Positions 43,236 to 56,934 of a stretch of DNA of 64,000 bases are shown here, piece by piece. A model generated the notes under the pieces. The model was not told the origin of the DNA, searched no databases, and worked only from the letters and a program-made list of their open reading frames with translations. The position numbers and the translations under genes were made by a program. Each line of letters starts with the position of its first letter. Positions within the stretch are counted from its first letter, which is position 1. The stretch lies in assembly GCF_055900595.2 (NCBI RefSeq), contig NZ_CM148325.1. One strand, given 5' to 3'.

Positions 43236-43347
43236 GAAACGGAGCGGCACCTCTTTTAACCCTTGAAGTCACTGCCCGTTTCGAGAGTTTCTCAACTCGA
43301 ATAACTAAAGCCAACGTGAACTTTTGCGGATCTCCAGGATCCGCTTT
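43236..43347 (+). ncRNA. oxyS: OxyS small regulatory RNA
   Basis: GAAACGGAGCGGCACCTCTTTTAACCCTTGAAGTCACTGCCCGTTTCGAGAGTTTCTCAACTCGAATAACTAAAGCCAACGTGAACTTTTGCGGATCTCCAGGATCCGCTTTTTTTT, divergent from oxyR and ending in a terminator hairpin plus U-run. Confidence 0.93.
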
Positions 43348-43391: not shown

Positions 43392-44675
43392 TTACTCAAT
43401 CCGATCTTTGACAATAAAGAAGTAACACAGCGCCCCGGTGAACGTCACACAGGCCGCGATAACCAGCGCCAGATTAAACGAGTGCGTGGTATCCACTACC
43501 CAACCGGTTACGATCGGAGCAAAGGAAGCAAAAACAAAACTGCCAAAGTTTTGAATCCCGGCGATGGAAGCCACTTTTGTTTCTGACACCATCACCTGCA
43601 CCAGTCCCCATGCAGATGTTCCCGCGAAATGCACGCAGAACAGCGCCATTGAGATAAACGCTACAGCCTGGGCTGGCGAGGAGGATTGCACGACCAGCAA
43701 CGTGCCTAATGCCGACATCATCAAACCGCAGACAATAGCCGTTTTACGCGTCTTCGCCAGGTCGTAGCCTTTTTTCGCCAGCCGATCGACAACAATACCG
43801 TTAACCCACATCCCGACCGCCGCCGCGAGGAAAGGAATCGCCGCCACCCAACCGGTTTTCGCCAGACTGAAGCCTTGCTCGGCTTGTAAATAACCGGGTA
43901 ACCACGCGATGTAGAGCCAACCGGTATAATTGACGCCAGAGAAACCTAAAATCATCCCCCAGGTTGTCCGATGCTTAAACAGCGCCAGCCACTCGCTAAA
44001 TTGTAATTGTGGACGCGGTTTAACCGGCGCGGAGAGATAGGTCCGTTCTTCGTCGGTCAGGACAAACTGCGCCCGGTTGCGATACCACGCGTACCAACAG
44101 ATCCCAACCAGAATCCCCGCCACGCCGATGATGACGAACATTGCCCGCCAGCCCCATGCCAGCTGCATCAATACAAGAGCAGGAGGCGCAATAGCCTGAC
44201 CGATAACGGTAGATGAGTTAAAAATCCCCAGCGCCGTGCCGCGTTCTTTTTGCGCATACCAGTCGGTGATCGACTTTACTCCCGCAGGCATAAATGGCGC
44301 TTCGCCAATACCCAGACCGATACGCATTAAAATAAAGTGGCTAAAAGAATTAACCATTCCTGTTAATGCCTGCATTAATGACCAGAATATTAAGCCTGCA
44401 CCTAAAACTATTCGTGGGCCAAAGCGGTCTAGCAAAATACCGGAAGGGAGTTGTGAAAAACCATAAGACAGAGAAAATGCAGAAAGCAAAACGCCAAATT
44501 CTGTCGCCGATAATCCTAACTCGCCACGAATCGCTTCGCCTGCCACGCTCAATGACGAACGGTCGAGGAAATTAACGATCCCCGCCATAAATAATAAAAC
44601 CAGCGTTACTGTCTGAATACGACGAATCCGTTGCGGTTTATTACCCGCAACACTGGTTGACACATCAACGTCCAT
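43392..44675 (-). CDS. MFS transporter, anion:cation symporter (ACS) family; predicted sugar-acid (aldonate/hexuronate-type) permease
   Basis: 427-aa ORF with 12 predicted TM segments and MFS motifs (DRFGPR; DgoT/ExuT-like); accessory relative to K-12 gene order. Confidence 0.8.
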   Translation of the reverse strand: MDVDVSTSVAGNKPQRIRRIQTVTLVLLFMAGIVNFLDRSSLSVAGEAIRGELGLSATEFGVLLSAFSLSYGFSQLPSGILLDRFGPRIVLGAGLIFWSLMQALTGMVNSFSHFILMRIGLGIGEAPFMPAGVKSITDWYAQKERGTALGIFNSSTVIGQAIAPPALVLMQLAWGWRAMFVIIGVAGILVGICWYAWYRNRAQFVLTDEERTYLSAPVKPRPQLQFSEWLALFKHRTTWGMILGFSGVNYTGWLYIAWLPGYLQAEQGFSLAKTGWVAAIPFLAAAVGMWVNGIVVDRLAKKGYDLAKTRKTAIVCGLMMSALGTLLVVQSSSPAQAVAFISMALFCVHFAGTSAWGLVQVMVSETKVASIAGIQNFGSFVFASFAPIVTGWVVDTTHSFNLALVIAACVTFTGALCYFFIVKDRIE

Positions 44676-44741
44676 TTTTAGCTCCTTGAGCGGAATTAAT
44701 CGATTTGCTGACTATTCAGAAAATAATTAAGCGAACCGTTA

Positions 44742-45956
44742 TTACCAGTTCCACAATGTGCCATCTTCCAGTCGTGCGACGGGGAGATACGCCGGGTCAT
44801 ACGGATATTTCGCCGCCAGTTTCTCATCGAAAGAAATACCCAGCCCCGGTTCATCGCCTGGGTGCATATAACCTTCATCGAAGCGCCAGCTGTGCGGGAA
44901 GACTTCAAGCATTTGTTCGGAATAGCCCATGTACTCCTGAACACCAAAGTTTGGCACCCAGAGGTCAAAATGCAGCGCCGCCGCATGACAAACAGGCGAT
45001 AAATCTGAAGGGCCATGCGAACCGGTACGTACCTGATAAAGCGATGCAAAATCGGCAATCCGTCGCATCCCGGTAATGCCGCCTGCATGGGTAATCGTCG
45101 TGCGAATATAGTCAATCAGCTGCTCTTCGATTAACTGCTTGCAGTCCCAGATACTGTTAAACACTTCACCGACCGCAATCGGCGTCACAGTATGCTGGCG
45201 AATCAGACGAAAACATTCCTGGTTCTCGGCAGGCGTCGGATCTTCCATCCAGAACAGGCGGTAATCCTCTATGCTCTTCCCAAAGCGTGCCGCTTCGATA
45301 GGAGTCAGGCGATGGTGCATGTCATGCAACAGATGTTCGTTAAAACCGAACTTATTACGCACCGCTTCAAATAACTTCGGTGTAAAATCGAGATACTTTT
45401 CTGAAGACCACAACTGCTCTTCCGGCCACAGGCCTTTGGTTGCCGGTTCATACGCCAGTCCTTTGCCCTTCGCCAGGCCATAAGTGGTTTGCATACCCGG
45501 TACACCGCACTGCACACGAATCGCCTTAAAGCCCATCTGCTGGTGCTTTGCATAGTCTTCAAGGACTTCATCAATCGTGCGCCCGGTGGTGTGGCAATAA
45601 ACCATCACGCCTTCACGAGAAGCCCCACCAAGCAGTTGATACAATGGCATATTTGCCGCTTTGGCTTTGATATCCCACAACGCCATATCAATGGCAGAAA
45701 TGGCCGACATCGTGACGGGGCCACGTCGCCAGTAAGCACCTTTATAAAAGAATTGCCAGATATCTTCGATACGACTGGCATCGCGGCCAATTAATTGTGG
45801 ACAAAGATGATCTTTCAGATAAGAAGCGACCGACAATTCGCGACCATTTAATGTGGCATCTCCCAATCCACAAAGTCCGCTTGCAGTGGTTATTTTAAGC
45901 GTAACGAAATTACGTCCTGGGCAAGTAACAAAAACATCTGCAGCAATAATTTTCAT
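44742..45956 (-). CDS. Enolase-superfamily dehydratase, mannonate dehydratase (ManD)/RspA-like subgroup
   Basis: 404 aa from [24 protein letters not shown]...; AGGAG RBS 9 nt upstream; ORF track begins 20 codons earlier. Confidence 0.8.
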
Positions 45957-46346
45957 TATTGCAATCTCCTGTGTTGTAAATAGACGCTTCAAACTTAATT
46001 TTACGCCTACTACCATACAAGAGAGAAAGAGCGATTATTCAACCGTGATCACATTAAAAATAAAAATTTCCACCGAGGAACAAAAATATCCTCAAATCTC
46101 ACCTACACTATTAACTACCATCGTTAAAACAACGTGTTAAATAATCACATAACAAATTCCTTTAAGGAAGGGAGTTATAACAACAACAAAAGATAATCAT
46201 ATTTTACTTAATTCAATACGTATCGATAGGTTTATTTAAAAAGGATTTTTCGGAATGAGAGATGAAAAGAAGATACACAAGCAGGAAGAAATACGATTAA
46301 TATTAGTTGCGGTAAGGGTAGCCGTTCCTCCCTTCCGCAACCCATT

Positions 46347-46443
46347 AACCGTTGAAGTCACAGACTATTTCAGGCATTTCTCAACTCAAAATAACGACAG
46401 CCAACGTGAACTTTATGGCTCTCCAGGATCTGCTTTGTTTTCC
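46347..46443 (+). repeat. Diverged copy of the oxyS 3' portion (oxyS-like remnant), direct orientation
   Basis: ACCGTTGAAGTCAC...TTTCTCAACTC...AGCCAACGTGAACTTT...CTCCAGGATCTGCTTTGTTTT aligns with oxyS 43258-43347 at roughly 80% identity by eye; terminator stem not conserved. Confidence 0.7.
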
Positions 46444-46444
46444 A

Positions 46445-47923
46445 TCAAACAACGGAGCTCAGCGCACTGGCTACCTGTTTAAAGCGAGCAAACCGTCGCC
46501 TGAGCATGTGTGCTTTTTCTACATTCGGTTCAAGACGAATCACGTTGAGCTGCGTAGCCTTCATGGCCTGTTTGAATCCAGAATAAGCCCCTCCTCCTAC
46601 TGCCGCACACATTGCAGCCGCTCTACAACCTGACTGTTCAATATCGACAATTTCAAGAGGCATTTTGCTGGCATCACAAAACATCTGCATCCAGATTCTG
46701 GAATGCGTTGGCCCGCCAGAGAAACGAATCGTTTGCAATGACTTATCAATCTCAATAAGACGGTCCTGATGCAACAAATGAGAAAAGACAATGCCCTGAT
46801 AAATAGCGTACACCAAATCTTCTCTTTTATGATGCCCACACAGCCCCAAAAATCCCCCGCTTAATGCCTCATGGTAATTCGAGCCAAACAACCACGGGAA
46901 AAAGAGAATATCATTCTGCTTCTCATACCCTCGTTCCACCCACTCATTAATCACCCGATAACTGTCAGGAAGATCCGGTAAAAATTGCTGCAAGAACCAT
47001 GTCAAATTACTGGCTGATGTAGGGCTTCCCTCATGGGCGAAAAATGTACCTGGAATGCTAAATTTCCCCCATACATAGGGATAATCAGAAGGAATAATGC
47101 GATCAAAGATTCGCGTTGCAATTGACCAGGTGCCAGCAACCGCACTTAACGTTGTACTGTCATAGATGCCAGAAGTGAGCGCCGCACCAACGACATCAAA
47201 AACACCACCAAAAACAGGCGTTCCGGCGAGAAGCCCACATTGGCTGGCTGCTTCAGATGTCACAAACCCAGCTAAATCAGCGGAGCCAATAATATCGGGA
47301 ACCTTACCCGCAACTTCCTTAATCTCAAATAGGCGAAAAAGTTCAGCATCATAAGCACTGGTATATTGATTATAAAAATTACTGCCTGAAATATTGGTTT
47401 CTTCACAAGCCAGTTTGCCAGTAAGCCGTGAACGTATGTAATCATGAACCATCAAAATGGTTCCGATGCGGCCATAATTGTCAGTCTCATGTTTTTTCAA
47501 CCAATGCAATAGTGCTACAGGGTGCGATGGCCAGAGCTGTTGCAGACTACGGTGATAACTTTCGCGGTCAATTCCTTGTTCTTTCCAGCTTGCAACCAGT
47601 TGTTGTGCGCGAGAATCAGAGGAAACAATGCCGTGTCGTAAGGGCTTACCTTGCCGGTCGAGCAGGTACAAACCTTTACCATGAGCAGAAAAACTGATGC
47701 CATCAATCTGACTCGCAGTAATATTGTTATCTGACATCGACAGTGAAATGACCTGGCACGTTACCTTCCATAACGCCTCCATGTCGCGTTCGCAAAAACC
47801 AGGACATGGGCTTAACAGAGGTAACGCCTGCGAAGAGACACCTATTTCACGTCCTTCTGCCGTATAAATTCCCGCTTTGGTTTCTGTACCACCTAAATCG
47901 ACACCAATAAAATACCGCTCCAT
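46445..47923 (-). CDS. FGGY-family carbohydrate kinase, L-xylulose/3-keto-L-gulonate kinase (LyxK)-like
   Basis: 492-aa ORF; N-terminal FIGVDLGGTETKAGIY and C-terminal FSGGPTHSRIWMQM actin-fold motifs. Confidence 0.8.
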   Translation of the reverse strand: MERYFIGVDLGGTETKAGIYTAEGREIGVSSQALPLLSPCPGFCERDMEALWKVTCQVISLSMSDNNITASQIDGISFSAHGKGLYLLDRQGKPLRHGIVSSDSRAQQLVASWKEQGIDRESYHRSLQQLWPSHPVALLHWLKKHETDNYGRIGTILMVHDYIRSRLTGKLACEETNISGSNFYNQYTSAYDAELFRLFEIKEVAGKVPDIIGSADLAGFVTSEAASQCGLLAGTPVFGGVFDVVGAALTSGIYDSTTLSAVAGTWSIATRIFDRIIPSDYPYVWGKFSIPGTFFAHEGSPTSASNLTWFLQQFLPDLPDSYRVINEWVERGYEKQNDILFFPWLFGSNYHEALSGGFLGLCGHHKREDLVYAIYQGIVFSHLLHQDRLIEIDKSLQTIRFSGGPTHSRIWMQMFCDASKMPLEIVDIEQSGCRAAAMCAAVGGGAYSGFKQAMKATQLNVIRLEPNVEKAHMLRRRFARFKQVASALSSVV

Positions 47924-47939
47924 GATCCCTCCTTAGTTT

Positions 47940-48803
47940 CTAAATATTATCCCAGCCGGCAAAGCGCATTTTCTCTTCAATCCATTGACGTGCATGAATA
48001 ATTTCTAATAGAGGTTCCGTCGCTTTTTCTGTCCACATTTCTATCAGAAACGTTCCGCGATAATTAAGATTACGCAGGATCTTAAATAATTTAATAAAAT
48101 CTACACACCCTTCACCAAAAGGAACGTCACGAAATTGCCCTGGAGAATCAGGCGTTACTGGGTACGTATCTTTAAGATGGATTGCGGCAATTCGATCAAT
48201 CCCCTTTACCAGCTCACTTTCCAGTTCATTACCCCATGCGGTCAGATTGCCAACATCCGGATAAACGGTAAACCAAGGGGAATTAATTTTTGTATCCAGG
48301 ACTTTCCATTTACTAATAGAATTAATAAATGGCGTATCCATGATCTCTACAGCACACATAACTTGTGCCGCTGCGGCCTGTTCAGCTGTCCAGGCCATCG
48401 CATCTTCAAACCAGGCGATAGTTTCTTCATTCTGCGGCTCATAATAAACGTCATAGCCTGCCAGTTGGATTGTTCGAATCCCCAAATCCTGCGCCAGGCG
48501 TAACGCCTTCAACATAATCGTACGTGCCTGCTGACGAGTATCTCTATCATGGCTACCAAATGGAAAACGCCGGTGAGCAGACAGGCACATTGTCGGAATA
48601 CGGATCCCCGTTTGCTGAATGGCGCTAATAAGCTCCATACGCTCGGTGAGCGACCAGTCCAGGCGGGCGAGTCGTTCATCATTCTCATCTACCGACATCT
48701 CAACAAAATCAAAACCGCAAGATTTAGCCAGGGCTAGTTTCTCTACCCAACTGGTATTCCTGGGTAGCGCTTTTTCATAAATACCTAACGGGTGGCGTCG
48801 CAT
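47940..48803 (-). CDS. Sugar-phosphate 3-epimerase, UlaE/SgbU-like (L-ribulose-5-P / L-xylulose-5-P 3-epimerase family, xylose-isomerase-like TIM barrel)
   Basis: 287-aa ORF with LGIYEKALP...GFDFVEMSVDE...LAGYDVYYE...GEG.VDF motifs; start overlaps upstream permease stop. Confidence 0.8.
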   Translation of the reverse strand: MRRHPLGIYEKALPRNTSWVEKLALAKSCGFDFVEMSVDENDERLARLDWSLTERMELISAIQQTGIRIPTMCLSAHRRFPFGSHDRDTRQQARTIMLKALRLAQDLGIRTIQLAGYDVYYEPQNEETIAWFEDAMAWTAEQAAAAQVMCAVEIMDTPFINSISKWKVLDTKINSPWFTVYPDVGNLTAWGNELESELVKGIDRIAAIHLKDTYPVTPDSPGQFRDVPFGEGCVDFIKLFKILRNLNYRGTFLIEMWTEKATEPLLEIIHARQWIEEKMRFAGWDNI

Positions 48804-49849
48804 TATTTTCCCTCACGAGTGATCAATTGTTGTTGAAAGATTTTCCGGCTCTTATTCATGTCACGCTGCAACTGCCATTTTTGTTTGATGAATTTAAATG
48901 CCAGTGCGGCGATCAATGTGATCCCCCATACCGCCAGATTGAAATGCAAACTAAGTCCCAACAGACTAAGGCCGGTAGCAATAACCTGAAGCACAAGTAA
49001 GGCACAAAAAACATGACTGACTTTACCCGCCCCACCGAATGGATCTGTGCCTCCCAATACAATTGCAAGAACCGTCAAGAGCAGATAGGAATCGCCATAG
49101 CCCATACGCGCCGAATTAAATCGCGCGAGCATAATAAGACCTGCTAATACACACAACATGCTGGATATAGCATATATAGCAATTAATACGCGGTCGGTGC
49201 GAATACCGCTAAACCATGTGGCGTTAATATTACTGCCACACATATAAATCGTTTTTCCCGTACGGGTTTTGCCGAGGAACAGAGCTAAAGCAACGGTGGT
49301 GACGATAAAAATTATCATCGGTACTGGGATCCCCATGATAACTTCAGACCCAATACTGCGGACTACTGGTGGCATACCACTTAAAGCTGCCCCCTTAGTC
49401 AGGTAAATACCGATACCACTAATAATGGTCATGCTACCCAATGTGACCAAAATAGGGTGAGCGCCTATATGAGAAATAATTGACCCAGTAATAGCTCCAA
49501 TGATGATGGCAATAAGCATCGCCCCGACAATAGCCAGGAAGAGCCAAAACAACTGACTACCTGTAGATGCATCTGCGGGTACATATTGAATCAACAGCCA
49601 GGCCATAAACAGGCTGGTCAGATTCGCAGTACCGATGATTGCCAGATTGAGCCCCCCGCTCAACATGGGTATAAACATCGCAAACGTGAGCAACCCAAGC
49701 TCTGGCAATTGAAATGCAATGCTCAGAAAAGTATTGCCGGTGAAAAAACGCCCCGGCATTACCAGACTAAATAACACCACCGCAATAAAACATATTGATA
49801 ATAAGCCTGAACTGGTACCATCTAGTGGAAAAAATATCCGCTTGTTCAT
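48803..49849 (-). CDS. Sugar ABC transporter permease (CUT2 / RbsC-like)
   Basis: Polytopic membrane ORF; start taken at MNKRIFFPLDG with GGAGG RBS 6 nt upstream (ORF track starts 10 codons earlier). Confidence 0.8.
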   Translation of the reverse strand: MNKRIFFPLDGTSSGLLSICFIAVVLFSLVMPGRFFTGNTFLSIAFQLPELGLLTFAMFIPMLSGGLNLAIIGTANLTSLFMAWLLIQYVPADASTGSQLFWLFLAIVGAMLIAIIIGAITGSIISHIGAHPILVTLGSMTIISGIGIYLTKGAALSGMPPVVRSIGSEVIMGIPVPMIIFIVTTVALALFLGKTRTGKTIYMCGSNINATWFSGIRTDRVLIAIYAISSMLCVLAGLIMLARFNSARMGYGDSYLLLTVLAIVLGGTDPFGGAGKVSHVFCALLVLQVIATGLSLLGLSLHFNLAVWGITLIAALAFKFIKQKWQLQRDMNKSRKIFQQQLITREGK

Positions 49850-49862
49850 TTCGATCCTCCCG

Positions 49863-50855
49863 TTAGACGAAACCAACATCAGTTTCTTTACGTTTTTTGT
49901 AATGGGTCACACAAATCGCCGAGACAATAACCACTCCAATAACGATATTGACGAAATAACTCGAGATGCCAATCAAATTAAGGCCGTTTTTAAGAATACC
50001 GATAAGAAATACGCCCATAAGCGTACCAATGACCGTACCACGTCCGCCTGATAAACTGGCACCGCCCAATACCGCTGCAGCCAGCACATCCAACTCTCCG
50101 CCAACCAATGCATTCGGCACAACTTCACTCATACGGTAAGCTTGCAGCATTCCACCAATTGCTGCAGCGGCACCAAGATAACCATAAGCAAACAGATAAA
50201 TTAGCGACACCCGAATCCCAATACGTCTTGCTGATTCGGTATTCCCTCCCACGGCATAAAGCTGACGCCCAATATGGGTTTTGTTCATTATCATCCACGT
50301 CAGAAATGCCATTCCCAGCATAACCACTAACGGTAATCCGATCTGGTAATCTTCTCCGCCAAATTCAAAACTCAGGAAAGAACGCTGCGTAATCCACCAA
50401 TCCGGTAAATCGTAAATACTGTGGCCATTAGTCAACCACATCAACATACCGAACAGTAGCGACTGCATACTAATCGTAATGATGATGGAAACGACATTAA
50501 GGTAATAAATAAGAATAGCGTTTATCAAACCAAAAATGATGCCAAGAAAAACAGCAAACACCAGACAGAAAAATGGATTTGATAGCGTTTCATTAAGCAG
50601 TAACGACGCCACAACATATTGCACAACCGAAGCTACTGCTGCAAAAGAGATATCAATTCCGCCAGTAACCAATACGACAAATAATCCGAGGGCGAAAATA
50701 CCCGTTACGGCATAACTTTCCGAGAGATCGAGCAAGTTCTGTATTGATAAAAACTCATCGCTCATGATGGAAAAAAATACCAGCATGAGAACAATGACCC
50801 ATCCTAACCAAGCTTCGACTGAACGAGGAAACCGCAGCCGCATAAAGCTAACCAT
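49863..50855 (-). CDS. Sugar ABC transporter permease (CUT2 / RbsC-like)
   Basis: 330-aa polytopic membrane ORF; start overlaps the ATPase gene stop by 8 nt. Confidence 0.8.
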   Translation of the reverse strand: MVSFMRLRFPRSVEAWLGWVIVLMLVFFSIMSDEFLSIQNLLDLSESYAVTGIFALGLFVVLVTGGIDISFAAVASVVQYVVASLLLNETLSNPFFCLVFAVFLGIIFGLINAILIYYLNVVSIIITISMQSLLFGMLMWLTNGHSIYDLPDWWITQRSFLSFEFGGEDYQIGLPLVVMLGMAFLTWMIMNKTHIGRQLYAVGGNTESARRIGIRVSLIYLFAYGYLGAAAAIGGMLQAYRMSEVVPNALVGGELDVLAAAVLGGASLSGGRGTVIGTLMGVFLIGILKNGLNLIGISSYFVNIVIGVVIVSAICVTHYKKRKETDVGFV

Positions 50856-52365
50856 TAATCACCTCCGCCAACTGCTGCTCGGTATAATTCGAAGGCAACA
50901 GCTCATTAATAATCTTTCCGCGCTTCATATGAAAAATACGATCGCAGTTATAATAAGCTTCTGGTGCTTCATCAGTAATTAATATCACTGAAATACCCAC
51001 ACCTGAAAGCCGATGAATAAGCTGGTAAATACTATCTTTTGCGCCAATATCTACACCTACCGTTGGCGCATCCAGAATTAAAACCTTAGGTCGTGTTAAA
51101 ATCCATTTAGCCAGGACAACCTTTTGTTGATTGCCGCCAGATAGCGTTGAAAGTGGATTATTTGGATCGGTGACTTTAATATCCAAATCCTGGATCCACT
51201 CCTTGACTAAGGTTTCTTTTCGATTTTCATCAATAAACCCCGATGCCGTCTTTAAACGATCCAGAATCGAGAGCACCATATTATCGCTGATAGATTGGGG
51301 TAATACGGCCCCCAGTGTCAGGCGATCTTCTGAAACATATGCTATTCCCAGTTTTACCGCATGCGTGTTGTCTTTAATTGTAACGGGCTTACCTTCCAGA
51401 TAAATATCACCACTATCTGGTCGAGTAATACCGAAAAGACTCAATGCTAATTCAGTTCTCCCCGCACCAAGTAAACCACACAATCCCAGAACCTCGCCCT
51501 GGTGTAGTTTTAGAGAAACATCTTCAAATTGCCCTTTTCTGCATAATTTGTTTAGTTCAAGGACTACTTTGCCTTCAACGCTATTTGGTAGCTTCTTCTG
51601 GTGGACTATAGTTTTTCCGGTCATTAACTCAGTAATATCGCCCGGAGAAAGTTGATTGGCAGCCCACGTTCCAATTATCTCTCCATCACGGATGACCGTA
51701 ATCCGATCTGAAATTTCCTTAACTTCATCAAGGCGGTGGCTAACAAAAACTACGGTAATATTTTTATCGCGTAAGTAATTCACTGTGCGTAGTAATTGAT
51801 TAACTTCTGTACGCGTCAATGATGCCGTTGGCTCGTCCATGATGACTAAGCGGGCATCGGCAATCAGAGCCCGGCAAATCGCGACCTGTTGGCGTTGTGC
51901 AATCGGCAAATGTTGTACTAACGCATCAGGATCGAGATTGAATTGCAGCTCCTGAATTATTTTCTGCGATACATCTCGAAGTTGTTTTTTTCTGTGCAGC
52001 CCTAAATATCCCTTCAGGTTGTATTCAAAAGCGATATTTTCAGCAACAGAAAGATTTGGGAATAAAGAAAGATCCTGATATATCACCTGAATACCCAGTT
52101 CCCGAGCTTTATCAGGAGAAAGACGAGTCCAGGACTTACCATCTATAATAATTTCACTTCCCGAATCAGGGACATAAACACCACACAGCGTTTTGATCAG
52201 AGTACTTTTACCACACCCATTCGCACCAGCAAGACAATGAACCTCACCTTTATTTAAGGTAAGATTGATATTCTTTAGAGCCCTATGGCCACCGAAACTT
52301 TTCGTTAGTGACCTTAGCGTCACTAATGGTTGCTCCGCATTCTTCTCTATAATATGAGGCATCAT
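50848..52365 (-). CDS. Sugar ABC transporter ATP-binding protein with two fused nucleotide-binding domains (RbsA/MglA-like)
   Basis: 505-aa ORF; Walker A GANGCGKST in the N-terminal domain, ABC signature LSGGNQQKVVLAKW in the second. Confidence 0.85.
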   Translation of the reverse strand: MMPHIIEKNAEQPLVTLRSLTKSFGGHRALKNINLTLNKGEVHCLAGANGCGKSTLIKTLCGVYVPDSGSEIIIDGKSWTRLSPDKARELGIQVIYQDLSLFPNLSVAENIAFEYNLKGYLGLHRKKQLRDVSQKIIQELQFNLDPDALVQHLPIAQRQQVAICRALIADARLVIMDEPTASLTRTEVNQLLRTVNYLRDKNITVVFVSHRLDEVKEISDRITVIRDGEIIGTWAANQLSPGDITELMTGKTIVHQKKLPNSVEGKVVLELNKLCRKGQFEDVSLKLHQGEVLGLCGLLGAGRTELALSLFGITRPDSGDIYLEGKPVTIKDNTHAVKLGIAYVSEDRLTLGAVLPQSISDNMVLSILDRLKTASGFIDENRKETLVKEWIQDLDIKVTDPNNPLSTLSGGNQQKVVLAKWILTRPKVLILDAPTVGVDIGAKDSIYQLIHRLSGVGISVILITDEAPEAYYNCDRIFHMKRGKIINELLPSNYTEQQLAEVING

Positions 52366-52392
52366 AATATTCCTGAATACGACTAAAGGAAT

Positions 52393-52412
52393 TCCGGGTC
52401 AAATTTGACCCG
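52393..52412. promoter_or_regulatory. Perfect 20-bp palindrome (intercistronic stem-loop) between binding-protein and ATPase genes
   Basis: CCGGGTCAAATTTGACCCGG within the 63-nt gap. Confidence 0.5.
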
Positions 52413-52428
52413 GTGATTTACAGTAAAA

Positions 52429-53433
52429 TTACAAGCCTAGCTTCACTAAACGTCGTGTATTTTCAAGATCGAGCTTTTCTGGATTATCACTATAAATAGT
52501 GTTGTTATTAACCTTGATCTCGCCCATATCACCGATTTTTACACCGTCTTTAATAGGTTCACCGTTCATCATTGCCGTCGCAACCTGGACAAAAACCTTA
52601 CCCGCAATCATAGGGTTTGAAATATATCCCCCATCAATGGCACCTTTTTCGAGTAGCTTAATTCCCTGACCTGGAGTGAAGGTTCCAAAAACGCAAATTG
52701 CATCATTTTTCTTCCGCTTATCAATAGCACGCCCCGCACCAATTGGTCCTTGTGAACCAAATGACATAATGCCTTTAAGATCTTTATATTTAGACATTAA
52801 ATCGTTCGTCGTGCGCATTGAATCATCCACCGACTCAGCAACACCAAAACGATCTTCAACCAACGTCATATTTGGATAATGTTCTTTTTGATAGGCAATC
52901 GCGGCATTGGCCCAGTCATTTACCAAAGGCACAGTCAGACTGCCGACAAACATGGCGTATTTACCTTCTTCGCCCATACACTTCGCCATATCTTTCATAT
53001 GATTGGCACCCATTGTCTGGGTATTTAACAACTCAAAATCCCAATCTGCATTTTTTTGATCTGGTGATTCGTGGGTAATAACTTTAATACCGGCTTCTTG
53101 TGCACGCTTAAGTACAGGTTCAAGAACCTTTGCATCGTTAGGAACAACACCAATAACATCCACTTTTCGTGCAATTAAATCTTCAATCGCCCGAACCTGT
53201 TCAGCTGGATCTGCCGTTGTAGGGCCGACCTGCCATGCATCAACCCCCAATAGTTTTCCTTCATTTTTAATGCCTTGTTCCATCACATTAAACCAGGGAA
53301 TTCCACCGACTTTTACTACTACCCCCATCGTAAAAGGTTTATTCGCTTTTTGTGATGTTACAGTCTGATCAGCCCATGCAGCAGTGGAAGATAATACGGT
53401 AGCAATAAGGCAGGGTAAGATTAATTTTTTCAT
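52429..53433 (-). CDS. Periplasmic sugar-binding protein (type I PBP, RbsB-like)
   Basis: 334-aa ORF with signal peptide MKKLILPCLIATVLSSTAAWA; first gene of the ABC operon. Confidence 0.85.
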   Translation of the reverse strand: MKKLILPCLIATVLSSTAAWADQTVTSQKANKPFTMGVVVKVGGIPWFNVMEQGIKNEGKLLGVDAWQVGPTTADPAEQVRAIEDLIARKVDVIGVVPNDAKVLEPVLKRAQEAGIKVITHESPDQKNADWDFELLNTQTMGANHMKDMAKCMGEEGKYAMFVGSLTVPLVNDWANAAIAYQKEHYPNMTLVEDRFGVAESVDDSMRTTNDLMSKYKDLKGIMSFGSQGPIGAGRAIDKRKKNDAICVFGTFTPGQGIKLLEKGAIDGGYISNPMIAGKVFVQVATAMMNGEPIKDGVKIGDMGEIKVNNNTIYSDNPEKLDLENTRRLVKLGL

Positions 53434-53461
53434 CGTAATTTCCTTAAGAAATAGTTCAGGT

Positions 53462-53493
53462 GTCAGGAAAACTCGATATAATATCGACCTGAC
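53462..53493. promoter_or_regulatory. Nested inverted repeats in the binding-protein promoter region, candidate operator for the adjacent DeoR regulator
   Basis: GTCAGG-AAAAC-TCGATATAATATCGA-C-CTGAC, 36 nt upstream of the binding-protein start. Confidence 0.35.
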
Positions 53494-53555
53494 TATTTAT
53501 ATAATTTATAATCCCTTAGGCATTGATTAATAATTTAGACAATAAATAACGCCTA

Positions 53556-54365
53556 TTATTTATCAACCTCCACAATGTTTAATTGTGGAAATTGTGTTCG
53601 ATACCGAGTATCTGTACAAACATTAGTCACCAGAATATCGATTTCATCCAGCGTGCATATTTTACTAAATGCATACTGTTCAAACTTAGTGGAGTCGACC
53701 AGCAATATTTTTTGTCCTGACACCTGAAGCATCACCTGTTTAAGTCTGGCATTAATTTCACTGCCATCGCGGACACCATTCCCCAGATTCAACCCCTGGC
53801 ATGAAAAGAAAAAACTGTTGATTTGAAAATTTCGGATCGCACTCTCTGCAACCGGGCCATGAAAATCATCATGTCGCTCAGAATACTCACCACCGATACC
53901 AATAATTCGAACTCGATCACGGCAAGCTAACGCCTGAATTATCCGTAATGAATTTGTAACTACGGTAACATCTATATCGGGAATTTGACGAGCTAAAAAC
54001 CAACAAGTACTACTGTTATCCATTAAAATACAATCACCAGGGTGAATAAATTGCAATGCGGCCTTCGCAATTCTGGCTTTTATATCAGGATTTTCTTCAG
54101 TCCGTTTACGGAATGATTCCGCACGATCGATACTATTATCTTGCCACGCATTATCGGCGAGCATAACCGGAGCGCTATCAGATGAATCCAGAGCGACCGC
54201 GCCACCAAAGCTACGGATTAACTTTTTGTTGCGCTCCAGTACCGTTAAATCCCGACGAATTGTCTCAGGAGACGCTTTAAATAATCGTGATAATTCAGTT
54301 ACCCGCACAGCACCTTGTTTTTGTACATGTGCGCATATCATTTTATGGCGCTCTGCCTGCAACAT
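53556..54365 (-). CDS. DeoR-family transcriptional regulator
   Basis: 269-aa ORF with N-terminal HTH (VRVTELSRLFKASPETIRRDLTVLE) and C-terminal DeoR sugar-binding domain. Confidence 0.85.
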   Translation of the reverse strand: MLQAERHKMICAHVQKQGAVRVTELSRLFKASPETIRRDLTVLERNKKLIRSFGGAVALDSSDSAPVMLADNAWQDNSIDRAESFRKRTEENPDIKARIAKAALQFIHPGDCILMDNSSTCWFLARQIPDIDVTVVTNSLRIIQALACRDRVRIIGIGGEYSERHDDFHGPVAESAIRNFQINSFFFSCQGLNLGNGVRDGSEINARLKQVMLQVSGQKILLVDSTKFEQYAFSKICTLDEIDILVTNVCTDTRYRTQFPQLNIVEVDK

Positions 54366-54744
54366 AGTATCGGTCCGTTATTATCAAATTAGCATGCTTA
54401 TATAATTAACTGTTCCCTCATAAAATAAAGTGATAGGAATCAAGATTCATTTTATAATTATAATCGCAAACAGGAATGGTGATCTTTATCACAAATTAAA
54501 TTGAGAACACTCTACTATTTGACATTACTTTGAGATATCGGTCACTAAATAAGTCTTATTCTGCCATCTAACGAAAAATTTAAATACAAAAACAAAAATA
54601 ATCGGGCATAGCAATCGCTTCCATTCATGACCGAATACGCCCGAATAAAACCGTTTATACCCACTTATCCTCTTTCGTTGCCTTCTTACATGCCTTGAAT
54701 ATTTTACATTTCTTATATTCAGCGTAATTTAGGAAACATAATTT

Positions 54745-54816
54745 ATGAGCAAAAAAAGCCCAAACTCAAAAGTTAAAGTTTATTTATATAATACATACAG
54801 ATTATCGTGGAGTTAA
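54745..54816 (+). CDS. Candidate 23-codon upstream ORF ([23 protein letters not shown])
   Basis: AGGAAA 8 nt before the ATG; TAA stop ends 2 nt before the 4-epimerase ATG; no homology claimed. Confidence 0.25.
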
Positions 54817-54818
54817 AA

Positions 54819-55511
54819 ATGGATATGCTAAAGGAAAAAGTTCTTGCTGCGAATTTATCATTACCCCTTCATCAGTTAGTGACGTTTACCTGGGGAAATG
54901 TTAGTGGTGTTGATCGCGAAAAAGGTGTCATGGTTATTAAACCTTCTGGGGTCGAATACAGCCAAATGGGCATTGCAGATATGGTGGTAGTGGATTTACA
55001 AAGTGGTGAAGTTATTGATGGACACAGGAAACCCTCTTCAGACACCGATACTCATCTGGCGCTATACCGTGCTTTCCCGGATATTGGTGGTATCGTTCAT
55101 ACCCATTCCCGACACGCCACAATATGGGCTCAGGCCGGAAAAGATCTCACGGCCTTTGGGACAACCCACGCTGATTATTTCTACGGCACTATCCCCTGTA
55201 CACGCCCCATGAAGGATGACGAAATTAATGGACAATATGAATATGAAACGGGGCGAGTGATTATTGAAACGTTCAGACAACGAGAAATATCTCCCGCTGA
55301 CATTCCGGCTGTTTTAGTAAACAGTCATGGCCCCTTTGCCTGGGGAACTGATCCCGCGAACGCCGTGCATAACGCCGTTGTACTTGAAGAAATTGCCTAT
55401 ATGAATCTCTTTACACAACAACTACAGCCCCATCTTACGGCTATTCAACAGCCTCTACTGGATAAGCATTTTTTACGCAAGCATGGTGCCAATGCTTATT
55501 ACGGGCAGTAA
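54819..55511 (+). CDS. Class II aldolase-family L-ribulose-5-phosphate 4-epimerase (AraD/SgbE/UlaF-like)
   Basis: 230 aa from [34 protein letters not shown]...; GGAG RBS 6 nt upstream; HTHS and HADYFYG motifs; ORF track uses a GTG at 54807. Confidence 0.85.
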
Positions 55512-55560
55512 CCCTCTTAGCATGGCCTGGCGTTTTGCCAAGCCATAAATCGCCTAAGAC

Positions 55561-56934
55561 TTACTCCAACCGCGCCTGCGCAAAAGCAATCGCCTGCGCC
55601 ACCTGCTGCGGTGAGACGCCGCCTTTTGCCGCACGCTTGTCGAGGCACGATTGCAGCGACAGAATCGGATAGACATCTTCGCCAATCACCTGACTGAATT
55701 TCTGCAACTCACTGAGCGGCAGATCTTCCAGCGGTTTGCCCTGACGAATGGCTTCCACCACCGCTTCACCAACAATATGGTGCGCCTCGCGGAACGGCAC
55801 ACCTTTCGCCACCAGGTAATCCGCCAGTTCAGTGGCGTTCGCATACCCCTGCTGCGCCGCTTCCTGGCAACGTGGGCGTTTCACCTGAATGCCGTCCAGC
55901 ACCAGCGCCGCCATATGCAGGCAGTCCAGCCAGGTATCGAGCGCGTCGAACAGACCTTCTTTGTCTTCCTGCATATCTTTGTTATAAGCCAGCGGCAAAC
56001 CTTTCAGCGTCATCATCATGCCAGTCAACGCGCCCTGAACACGACCGCATTTACCGCGAATCAGCTCCAGCGCATCCGGGTTTTTCTTCTGCGGCATTAA
56101 TGATGAACCGGAAGTCACGCGATCAGAAAGCTCCACAAAACCCGCTTCGCCGGTGTTAAAGAAAATCAGATCTTCGGCAAAACGCGACAAATGCACCATA
56201 CCGATAGCGGCGGCAGAAAGCAGTTCCAGCACGTGGTCGCGGTCAGAAACGCTGTCGAGACTGTTACGGGTCGCCGAAGCAAAGCCCAGCCAGCCTGCTA
56301 ACTGTTCACGGTCGATTTCATAGGCCGTTCCCGCTAGTGCGCCACAGCCTAACGGGCTGACATCCAGACGCTTAAGCGCATCCTGCAAACGGCTTTCATC
56401 ACGCGCCAGCATCTCAACATAGGCCAGGCACCAGTGCGCGAACGTCACCGGTTGGGCGCGTTGCAGGTGAGTGTAACCTGGCATTACCGCGTCCTGATTG
56501 TTTTGTGCGGTTTCCACCAGCGCCGATTGCAGCTGTCGGTTAGCCGTCAGCAACTCGCTAACGGTATCCTTGCACCACAGTTTCAGATCGGTCGCCACCT
56601 GATCATTACGGCTACGCCCGGTGTGCAGTTTTTTGCCTAACTGGCCCACTTTGTCGATCAGTTTGCCTTCCACCCAGCTATGGATATCTTCGGCGTCGCT
56701 TTCAAGAATTTGTTGTGGCCTGGCGCGAACATCTTCCAGCAGCACATTGAGCGCCTCTTCCAGTTGCACCTGTTCTTCTGCGGTTAACACGCCTACCGTT
56801 ACCAGCGCTTTGGACCAGGCCACAGAGCCAACAATATCCTGCTCCGCCAGACGGTAATCAAAGCGCAGTGAGTCGTTGAATTGTTTAAACCGTTGATCTG
56901 CTGCCTGGGTAAAACGCCCGCCCCAAAGTGCCAT
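55561..56934 (-). CDS. argH: Argininosuccinate lyase
   Basis: 457-aa [47 protein letters not shown]... Confidence 0.96.

Follow-up and report, generated by a model that had tools for sequence, protein, structure and literature searches.

An eight-gene mobile cassette of Escherichia coli and other Enterobacterales that probably scavenges free L-xylulose

The three enzymatic steps that lead from L-xylulose to D-xylulose-5-phosphate (D-xylulose-5-P), a phosphorylation and two epimerisations, have been known since the 1960s. To our knowledge, no bacterial L-xylulose transporter has been described so far. The nearest described uptake systems, Aau and Rbl, import D-ribulose, and a 2025 study found them to matter in the gut of mice (PMC12307932). 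Here we analyse a window of 64,000 nucleotides from an E. coli chromosome (contig NZ_CM148325.1, assembly GCF_055900595.2), in which eight intact open reading frames (ORFs) at 46445-55511 make up a cassette for sugar uptake and catabolism. Its most likely function, which we propose with moderate confidence, is to import free L-xylulose and to convert it via L-xylulose-5-P and L-ribulose-5-P to D-xylulose-5-P.

Identical E. coli chromosomes in RefSeq are annotated with these eight genes. The initial annotation had described a minus-strand operon (binding protein, ATPase, two permeases, 3-epimerase, kinase) with a DeoR-type regulator upstream and a divergently transcribed 4-epimerase. This layout stands, except that two start codons had to be corrected: RefSeq places the start of the second permease at 49849 rather than 49879, and that of the 4-epimerase at 54819 rather than at a GTG at 54807. 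The annotation had also held that uptake is by an ATP-binding cassette (ABC) system of the CUT2 type, that no SgbH/UlaD-type decarboxylase, dehydrogenase or isomerase is encoded, and that every component belongs to a known family. Our results agree on all three points. The four transporter components match CUT2 families; gene content and tblastn searches with SgbH, YiaK and a zinc-dependent alcohol dehydrogenase (Zn-ADH) revealed no decarboxylase, dehydrogenase or isomerase within the island, and the cassette lacks these enzymes in all species that were looked at; and each protein falls in a known family, with no characterisation of the combination found in literature searches. Two allele groups of the island, about 1.4% apart, occur in E. 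coli. All eight reading frames are kept between both alleles, with ratios of nonsynonymous to synonymous substitution rates (dN/dS) of 0.05-0.43, indicating that these are real working genes and not chance ORFs.

The enzyme complement carries most of the functional assignment. The 3-epimerase (47940..48803, minus strand) is of the SgbU type and predicted to interconvert L-xylulose-5-P and L-ribulose-5-P. It is 71% identical to K-12 SgbU, passes NF009689 (475 bits versus a cutoff of 200) and TIGR00542 (457 versus 272), and aligns with the UlaE structure 3CQH at 337 bits. The Glu, Asp, His and Glu at its metal/catalytic positions, as reported for UlaE by Shi et al. 2008, are all kept. The 4-epimerase (54819..55511, plus strand), an AraD/SgbE-type enzyme predicted to act on L-ribulose-5-P, is 72% identical to K-12 SgbE, passes NF009002 (434 bits versus 386) and TIGR00760 (414 versus 389), and aligns with the AraD structure 1JDI at 362 bits. 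It retains the Zn ligands His95, His97 and His171 as well as the catalytic residues Asp120 and Tyr229. Kinase, 3-epimerase and 4-epimerase would all be needed only if the kinase product is L-xylulose-5-P. Given that all three are under purifying selection in E. coli (dN/dS 0.09-0.18), this requirement supports L-xylulose as the substrate.

The kinase (46445..47923, minus strand) belongs to the FGGY family and, from NCBIfam profiles and alignment with LyxK, is a predicted L-xylulose 5-kinase. K-12 LyxK, an L-xylulose/3-keto-L-gulonate kinase of EC 2.7.1.53, is its closest characterised relative (42% identity, 411 bits, full length); other FGGY models (XylB, LsrK, GntK) and structures reach at most about 200 bits. 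No NCBIfam equivalog is passed by the kinase (XylB, 200 bits versus a cutoff of 380; LsrK, 138 versus 528), and the ribulokinase models NF003154 and TIGR01234 give 68 and 42 bits. Judged by NCBIfam scores, identities to the K-12 proteins and structure alignments, all three enzymes fall with their K-12 counterparts LyxK, SgbU and SgbE, as originally proposed, rather than with Lsr or allose/psicose enzymes. An assignment to the Lsr system for autoinducer-2 was rejected on the LsrK score and on the LsrB score of the binding protein (103 bits versus 384), and there is no LsrF/LsrG gene in the island. An allose/psicose assignment of the cassette was likewise rejected on NCBIfam scores; allose-type enzymes belong to the loci of transporter relatives described below.

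The kinase is the fastest-evolving cassette component by orthologue identities. It is 69-70% identical to its orthologues in Citrobacter and Atlantibacter (loci L012, L019 and L037), compared with 81-95% for the other seven proteins. A mosaic or recombinant origin of the E. coli kinase was considered and rejected, as the divergence is even along the whole gene. Despite this divergence from its orthologues, the kinase is under purifying selection within E. coli.

To place the kinase among its relatives, its alignment was scanned against one genome per species, and the flanks of 80 loci were annotated. Three operon architectures emerged. Type A is the eight-gene cassette of the window. Type B, found in Klebsiella, Serratia, Sodalis, Succinivibrionaceae and others, combines a Zn-dependent polyol dehydrogenase, an RbsB-like binding protein and one permease with the kinase and two epimerases. 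Type C is the yiaK-S arrangement, with plaR, yiaK, yiaL and the SgbH decarboxylase, and its kinase clade includes K-12 LyxK. By tblastn over the 80 loci, sgbH is confined to type C and present at every sampled type C locus. In a neighbour-joining tree computed without bootstrap, type C is sister to an SgbH-free clade, in which type A nests beside enterobacterial type B kinases. Seventeen fixed residues are common to type A and type B kinases and differ from type C. The sister position of the SgbH-free clade and the difference at these 17 positions mark the cassette kinase as a LyxK-like paralogue rather than an orthologue of LyxK. A pentitol dehydrogenase releases a free ketose, and from the type B context it is therefore free L-xylulose that kinases of this clade are likely to act on. 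Type A has the enzymes of type B but not the dehydrogenase, and a different transporter.

These clades bear directly on an alternative in which the cassette handles a keto-sugar acid (3-keto-L-gulonate or 2,3-diketo-L-gulonate) and relies on decarboxylation by the host's SgbH or UlaD. The closest kinase of known function, LyxK, is part of that pathway, and E. coli K-12 encodes both SgbH and UlaD. However, sgbH travels with the kinase in the other clade only, and the signature of the cassette kinase is that of the dehydrogenase-linked kinases. The binding protein is of the neutral-sugar CUT2 type and keeps two Glu in its pocket, and duplication of SgbU and SgbE without SgbH would be unparsimonious. 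We therefore consider a keto-sugar acid highly improbable. A carboxylate-binding residue specific to the sgbH-linked kinases was also looked for, and no interpretable pattern was found.

The transporter has the parts of a CUT2 importer (TC 3.A.1.2): a class I binding protein, a fused double ATPase and BPD_transp_2 permeases. The ATPase (50848..52365, minus strand; 505 amino acids) matches XylG, AraG, RbsA and YtfR over residues 10-503, in both halves and with no score above cutoff; two PF00005 domains are recorded in its orthologues. Permease 1 (49863..50855, minus strand) has RbsC/AlsC/AraH-like NCBIfam matches. Permease 2 (48803..49849, minus strand) has AlsC/RbsC/LsrD-like matches below the equivalog cutoffs, and its orthologues carry PF02653. 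The periplasmic binding protein (52429..53433, minus strand) is RhaS/LsrB-like but below all NCBIfam equivalog cutoffs, and PF13407 (Peripla_BP_4) is recorded for its 87-89% identical orthologues.

Forty-three sugar-binding proteins in the PDB match the binding protein. The best matches, at 285-288 bits, are 9I1M, which is AauA of enterohaemorrhagic E. coli (EHEC), and 3D02, an unpublished Klebsiella structure on which a full-text literature search found no paper. The cassette protein is a paralogue of AauA, with about 60% identity. In 9I1M, AauA is bound to alpha-D-ribulose, with a dissociation constant of about 2 µM (PMC12307932). The ligand contacts of AauA are Lys37, Trp43, Glu118, His167, Glu196 and Ser223, with His167 bonding the C2 and C4 hydroxyls (PMC12307932). 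Five of these six contacts are kept in the cassette protein, and the sixth, His167, is replaced by Val171. This position is Val in 35 of 35 type A proteins and His in 107 of 107 nearest relatives. When specificity positions were defined as those fixed within both of these groups but different between them, only three were found: 171 (Val in type A, His in the relatives), 253 (Thr, Ser) and 272 (Ser, Trp). By pairwise alignment, which is approximate, Ser272 pairs with Gln235 of RbsB, a ribose contact. A literature search for Trp266 as a pocket residue of LsrB found nothing, and that comparison was dropped. Overall, the three-position pattern looks like a specificity change of the binding protein, and the two Glu and one Lys kept in the pocket fit a neutral sugar.

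The resemblance to AauA raises the possibility that the imported sugar is a different ketopentose, be it L-ribulose, D-ribulose or a range of ketopentoses taken up with broad specificity; the kinase would then be a ribulokinase. AauA, the nearest characterised binding protein, binds D-ribulose, and most of its contacts are preserved. FGGY kinases can also be promiscuous, and AraB acts on D-ribulose according to the Aau study (PMC12307932). On the other hand, D-ribulose-5-P needs no epimerase and L-ribulose-5-P just the 4-epimerase, yet a 3-epimerase is present in every cassette and under purifying selection. In addition, the kinase groups with LyxK and not with the ribulokinase models, and the ligand-contacting His is replaced throughout the type A clade. 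In our view, a different ketopentose is distinctly unlikely.

A further alternative is a five-carbon sugar, rare or modified, outside those considered here. SgbU- and SgbE-like enzymes with shifted specificities would then accept its phosphate. The three uniquely fixed pocket positions, two of which changed toward smaller side chains, would fit such a ligand, as would the rapid evolution of the kinase. Against this, the epimerases are 71-72% identical to SgbU and SgbE and retain every catalytic residue, which speaks for a chemistry that has not changed. Were the sugar instead a hexulose, its 3- and 4-epimerisation would be expected from stereochemistry to miss the D-series central metabolites. 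We judge an unconsidered sugar to be unlikely.

Returning to L-xylulose, we propose the following route. The data directly show the gene content, the family of each protein, the conservation of the cassette and the selection acting on it; what the transporter takes up, what the kinase phosphorylates and how the cassette is controlled are inferred. The binding protein would capture L-xylulose in the periplasm, probably as the furanose, and the CUT2 importer, formed by two permeases and the fused double ATPase, would take it in unmodified. The LyxK-like kinase would then produce L-xylulose-5-P, the SgbU-type 3-epimerase would convert this to L-ribulose-5-P, and the AraD/SgbE-type 4-epimerase would feed D-xylulose-5-P into the pentose phosphate pathway. 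L-xylulose and D-ribulose are epimers at C4. A more specific and more tentative possibility, in which we place somewhat less than even confidence, is that the cassette is a dedicated high-affinity L-xylulose scavenger, a third ketopentose ABC system beside Aau and Rbl. The changes His171Val, Ser253Thr and Trp272Ser may then have retuned the pocket to the C4 epimer and given the carrier lineages of E. coli, Citrobacter, Yersinia and Providencia, and the plasmids with the cassette, a private nutrient niche in the gut or urinary tract, where L-xylulose may arise from the host glucuronate-xylulose pathway or from microbial polyol oxidation.

Several observations weigh against L-xylulose as the substrate. 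At 42% identity to LyxK, the specificity of the kinase is not readable from its sequence, and K-12 LyxK is reported to phosphorylate 3-keto-L-gulonate as well, a finding attributed to Yew and Gerlt in 2002. The E. coli kinase is also more diverged from its Citrobacter and Atlantibacter orthologues than are the other seven proteins. The nearest relatives of the binding protein, 62-68% identical and with His at position 171, sit with AlsE/AlsK/ribokinase genes or with FucA-like/RhaB-like genes; with such partners, the binding-protein family is not limited to ketopentoses. The replacements of His by Val and of Trp by Ser shrink side chains and could equally suit a larger or different ligand. Full-text literature searches found no description of this cassette, and no ligand-binding, growth or enzyme data on any member. 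The initial suggestion of a free ketopentose such as L-xylulose is strengthened in one respect, by the SgbH-free kinase clade and the likeness to AauA, and qualified in another: the binding protein alone would be no proof of a ketopentose ligand, and the assignment of the ligand leans mainly on the enzyme complement.

We also examined how the cassette might be controlled. The regulator (53556..54365, minus strand) gives full-length FucR/SrlR/AgaR-like NCBIfam matches, and its orthologues carry HTH_DeoR (PF08220) and DeoRC (PF00455), as in the DeoR/GlpR family. Between it and the 4-epimerase lies a divergent regulatory region of 453 bp (54366..54818), whose motifs fall in blocks kept in an alignment across six genera. 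At 54601-54645 the consensus TTCGG(G/T)C(G/A)T occurs three times, as the tandem repeats TTCGGGCGT and TTCGGTCAT (54627-54645, minus strand) and as an inverted copy ATCGGGCAT (54601-54609), together the candidate DeoR operator. The 9-mer TTCGGKCRT is not enriched over the whole window (64 matches versus 55.6 expected), so that the candidate operator rests solely on the clustering of the repeats and their conservation across genera. A CRP-like site, GGTGATCTTTATCACA (54478-54493), also lies in conserved sequence and has a putative role in catabolite control. The repeats, between the two promoters, are probably bound by the DeoR-family repressor, and cyclic AMP-CRP probably adds catabolite control. 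DeoR-family repressors usually respond to a phosphorylated pathway intermediate; the inducer that would release this one is therefore likely to be a sugar phosphate, for example L-xylulose-5-P. A promoter scan found 13 consensus sites versus 25 in shuffled sequences, and a hairpin in the spacer between the deoR-type gene and the binding-protein gene folds no better than shuffled sequence (z = -1.7). An ORF of 23 codons at 54746-54817 (plus strand) ends two bases before the start codon of the 4-epimerase; it is probably meaningless, since the stretch is unconserved in other genera.

In E. coli the cassette lies on a discrete island. Compared with an island-free strain (locus L094), 9,283 bp of island-specific DNA (46278..55560) stand in place of 172 bp of the manD-argH spacer. 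The island is flanked by argH (55561-56934, minus strand) on one side and by a manD-MFS-oxyS-oxyR segment on the other, and its GC content is 37-46%, versus about 52% in the flanks. It occurs in 146 of 5,426 complete E. coli genomes (about 3%) and is whole every time. In one of its copies (locus L095, NZ_CP195442.1) the kinase gene is split by IS1 at 1729-2426, and four other genomes have a split-shaped kinase match with about 776 bp of extra length, as in L095; the IS1-split kinase suggests that the pathway has been lost in some lineages.

Directly downstream of the kinase stop codon, alignment with true OxyS and with the Citrobacter oxyS region identified a degenerate second copy of oxyS (46330..46440, approximate; plus strand). 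The intact OxyS gene lies at 43236-43345, and the Rfam threshold is passed by the intact copy only, not by the relic. In Citrobacter amalonaticus, the cassette likewise lies between argH and oxyS-oxyR. Since the cassette abuts oxyS in Citrobacter, the relic suggests that the island reached E. coli with part of the donor's oxyS flank, and that it marks an argH-cassette-oxyS arrangement in the donor. Between oxyS and the island, at 43392-46016 (minus strand), are genes for a ManD-type D-mannonate dehydratase and for a major facilitator superfamily (MFS) protein of the galactonate-transporter family. A functional tie of these genes to the island was rejected: in GC content they resemble the core genome and differ from the island, and they are far more widespread, occurring in about 1,859-2,101 of the 5,426 genomes (at least 1,859 versus 146). 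Their composition and spread mark manD and the MFS gene as an insertion of their own, older than the island, at this argH-oxyR hotspot.

The eight-gene unit recurs with its gene order unchanged in ten genera. Its 24 loci beyond E. coli lie in Yersinia, Brenneria, Affinibrenneria, Pantoea, Erwinia, Serratia, Providencia, Citrobacter and Atlantibacter, with different neighbours where these were inspected. Searches with SgbH, YiaK and Zn-ADH (tblastn) found none of them in the 24 orthologous cassettes, and no copy contains a decarboxylase, dehydrogenase or isomerase. Because copies never come with an added enzyme, the unit moved by natural selection seems to be the eight genes alone. The whole cassette is also found on the conjugative IncF plasmid pKAM621_2 of Citrobacter braakii (locus L097, 5588-17232), between the IS5-like element ISKpn26 and IS1. 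Ten other plasmids, from Citrobacter, Enterobacter and Klebsiella, match 96% of a query spanning kinase to regulator. On pKAM621_2, a sugar module consisting of a phosphotransferase system (PTS) EIIC-rpiB-rpe set with a SIS-domain protein adjoins the cassette, and the region looks like a small accessory region for rare sugars. Taken together, we think it probable that the island moves horizontally as a unit complete in itself and serves to scavenge free L-xylulose.

The genomic neighbourhoods also speak to the possibility that the transporter imports an L-aldopentose, L-lyxose or L-xylose, which a host RhaA or FucI isomerises to L-xylulose before the cassette enzymes act. In Y. enterocolitica the cassette adjoins a fucose operon (fucO, fucA, fucP, fucI, fucK, fucU and fucR by Pfam), and in two other Yersinia species a FucR-like regulator occupies the same position (Yersinia loci L003, L020 and L022), so that three species have the cassette beside an apparent fucose operon. 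FucI can isomerise L-xylose, and that enteric bacteria isomerise L-lyxose and L-xylose to L-xylulose is classical biochemistry, reportedly described by Anderson and Wood in 1962 and by Badia in 1991. Aldose-type genes, AlsK and ribokinase among them, accompany relatives of the binding protein and would also suit an aldose. In contrast, the cassette moves among hosts and plasmids without any isomerase, and its neighbours in the other inspected genera include no sugar-isomerase genes. We consider import of an L-aldopentose very unlikely; the adjacency in Yersinia might be functional or a coincidence.

If free L-xylulose is indeed the substrate, these findings would assign a function to an island present in about 3% of complete E. 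coli genomes, in many other Enterobacterales and on conjugative plasmids, and would extend the D-ribulose theme of Aau and Rbl to L-xylulose. Which enteric strains become established in a host can depend on accessory islands for sugar uptake. The cassette would also offer a natural experiment on how a sugar-binding protein is retuned by changing two or three residues of its pocket. The chemistry is not new, and the families are all known; the novelty appears to lie in the wiring, which joins the back end of the sgb pathway, without its decarboxylase, to an AauA-type importer with an apparently retuned pocket, as a mobile cassette.

This wiring is best seen by comparison with four known systems. 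The cassette shares with the back end of yiaK-S (sgb) and ula the same three enzyme families, acting in the same order from L-xylulose-5-P through L-ribulose-5-P to D-xylulose-5-P (kinase, 3-epimerase and 4-epimerase with 42%, 71% and 72% identity). Unlike those pathways, it has no SgbH/UlaD decarboxylase, YiaK reductase or YiaL, and its uptake system is a CUT2 ABC importer in place of a tripartite ATP-independent periplasmic (TRAP) transporter or a PTS. Its regulator is of the DeoR type, in contrast to the IclR-type PlaR of yiaK-S, and its kinase is in the sister clade that is never linked to sgbH. Type B operons of Klebsiella, Serratia and Sodalis resemble the cassette in their sister kinases (52-55% identical), the same epimerases and a DeoR regulator, but have their own Zn-dependent dehydrogenase, an unrelated RbsB-like binding protein (304 amino acids) and a single permease. 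They appear to import a polyol and to make L-xylulose inside the cell, and probably encode the L-xylulose route of Aerobacter aerogenes, which Anderson and Wood are said to have described biochemically in 1962.

The als-like and related loci of Pectobacterium (L007, 7146-15093), Sodalis (L008, 6220-15076) and Vibrio (L009, 7168-15319), which hold the His-type relatives, share with the cassette a transporter in the same gene order, a binding protein 62-68% identical and a DeoR regulator. In contrast, their enzymes are AlsE/AlsK/ribokinase or FucA-like/RhaB-like/ribokinase-like, and their binding proteins keep His171 and Trp272. By these gene neighbourhoods, one transporter lineage seems to have been repeatedly re-partnered with different enzyme sets for different sugars. 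Finally, Aau of EHEC and Rbl of Citrobacter rodentium have the same four-component CUT2 type of transporter and are likewise accessory islands of enteric bacteria (Cottam et al. 2025, PMC12307932). The cassette differs from them in its regulation by a DeoR-family protein and in its enzymes: Rbl pairs its transporter with a D-ribulokinase and a KpsF-like isomerase and Aau encodes no enzyme at all, whereas the cassette has an L-xylulokinase-like kinase and two epimerases. Its binding protein in turn departs from AauA in the replacement of His167 by Val and in two more positions of the pocket region that are fixed differently.

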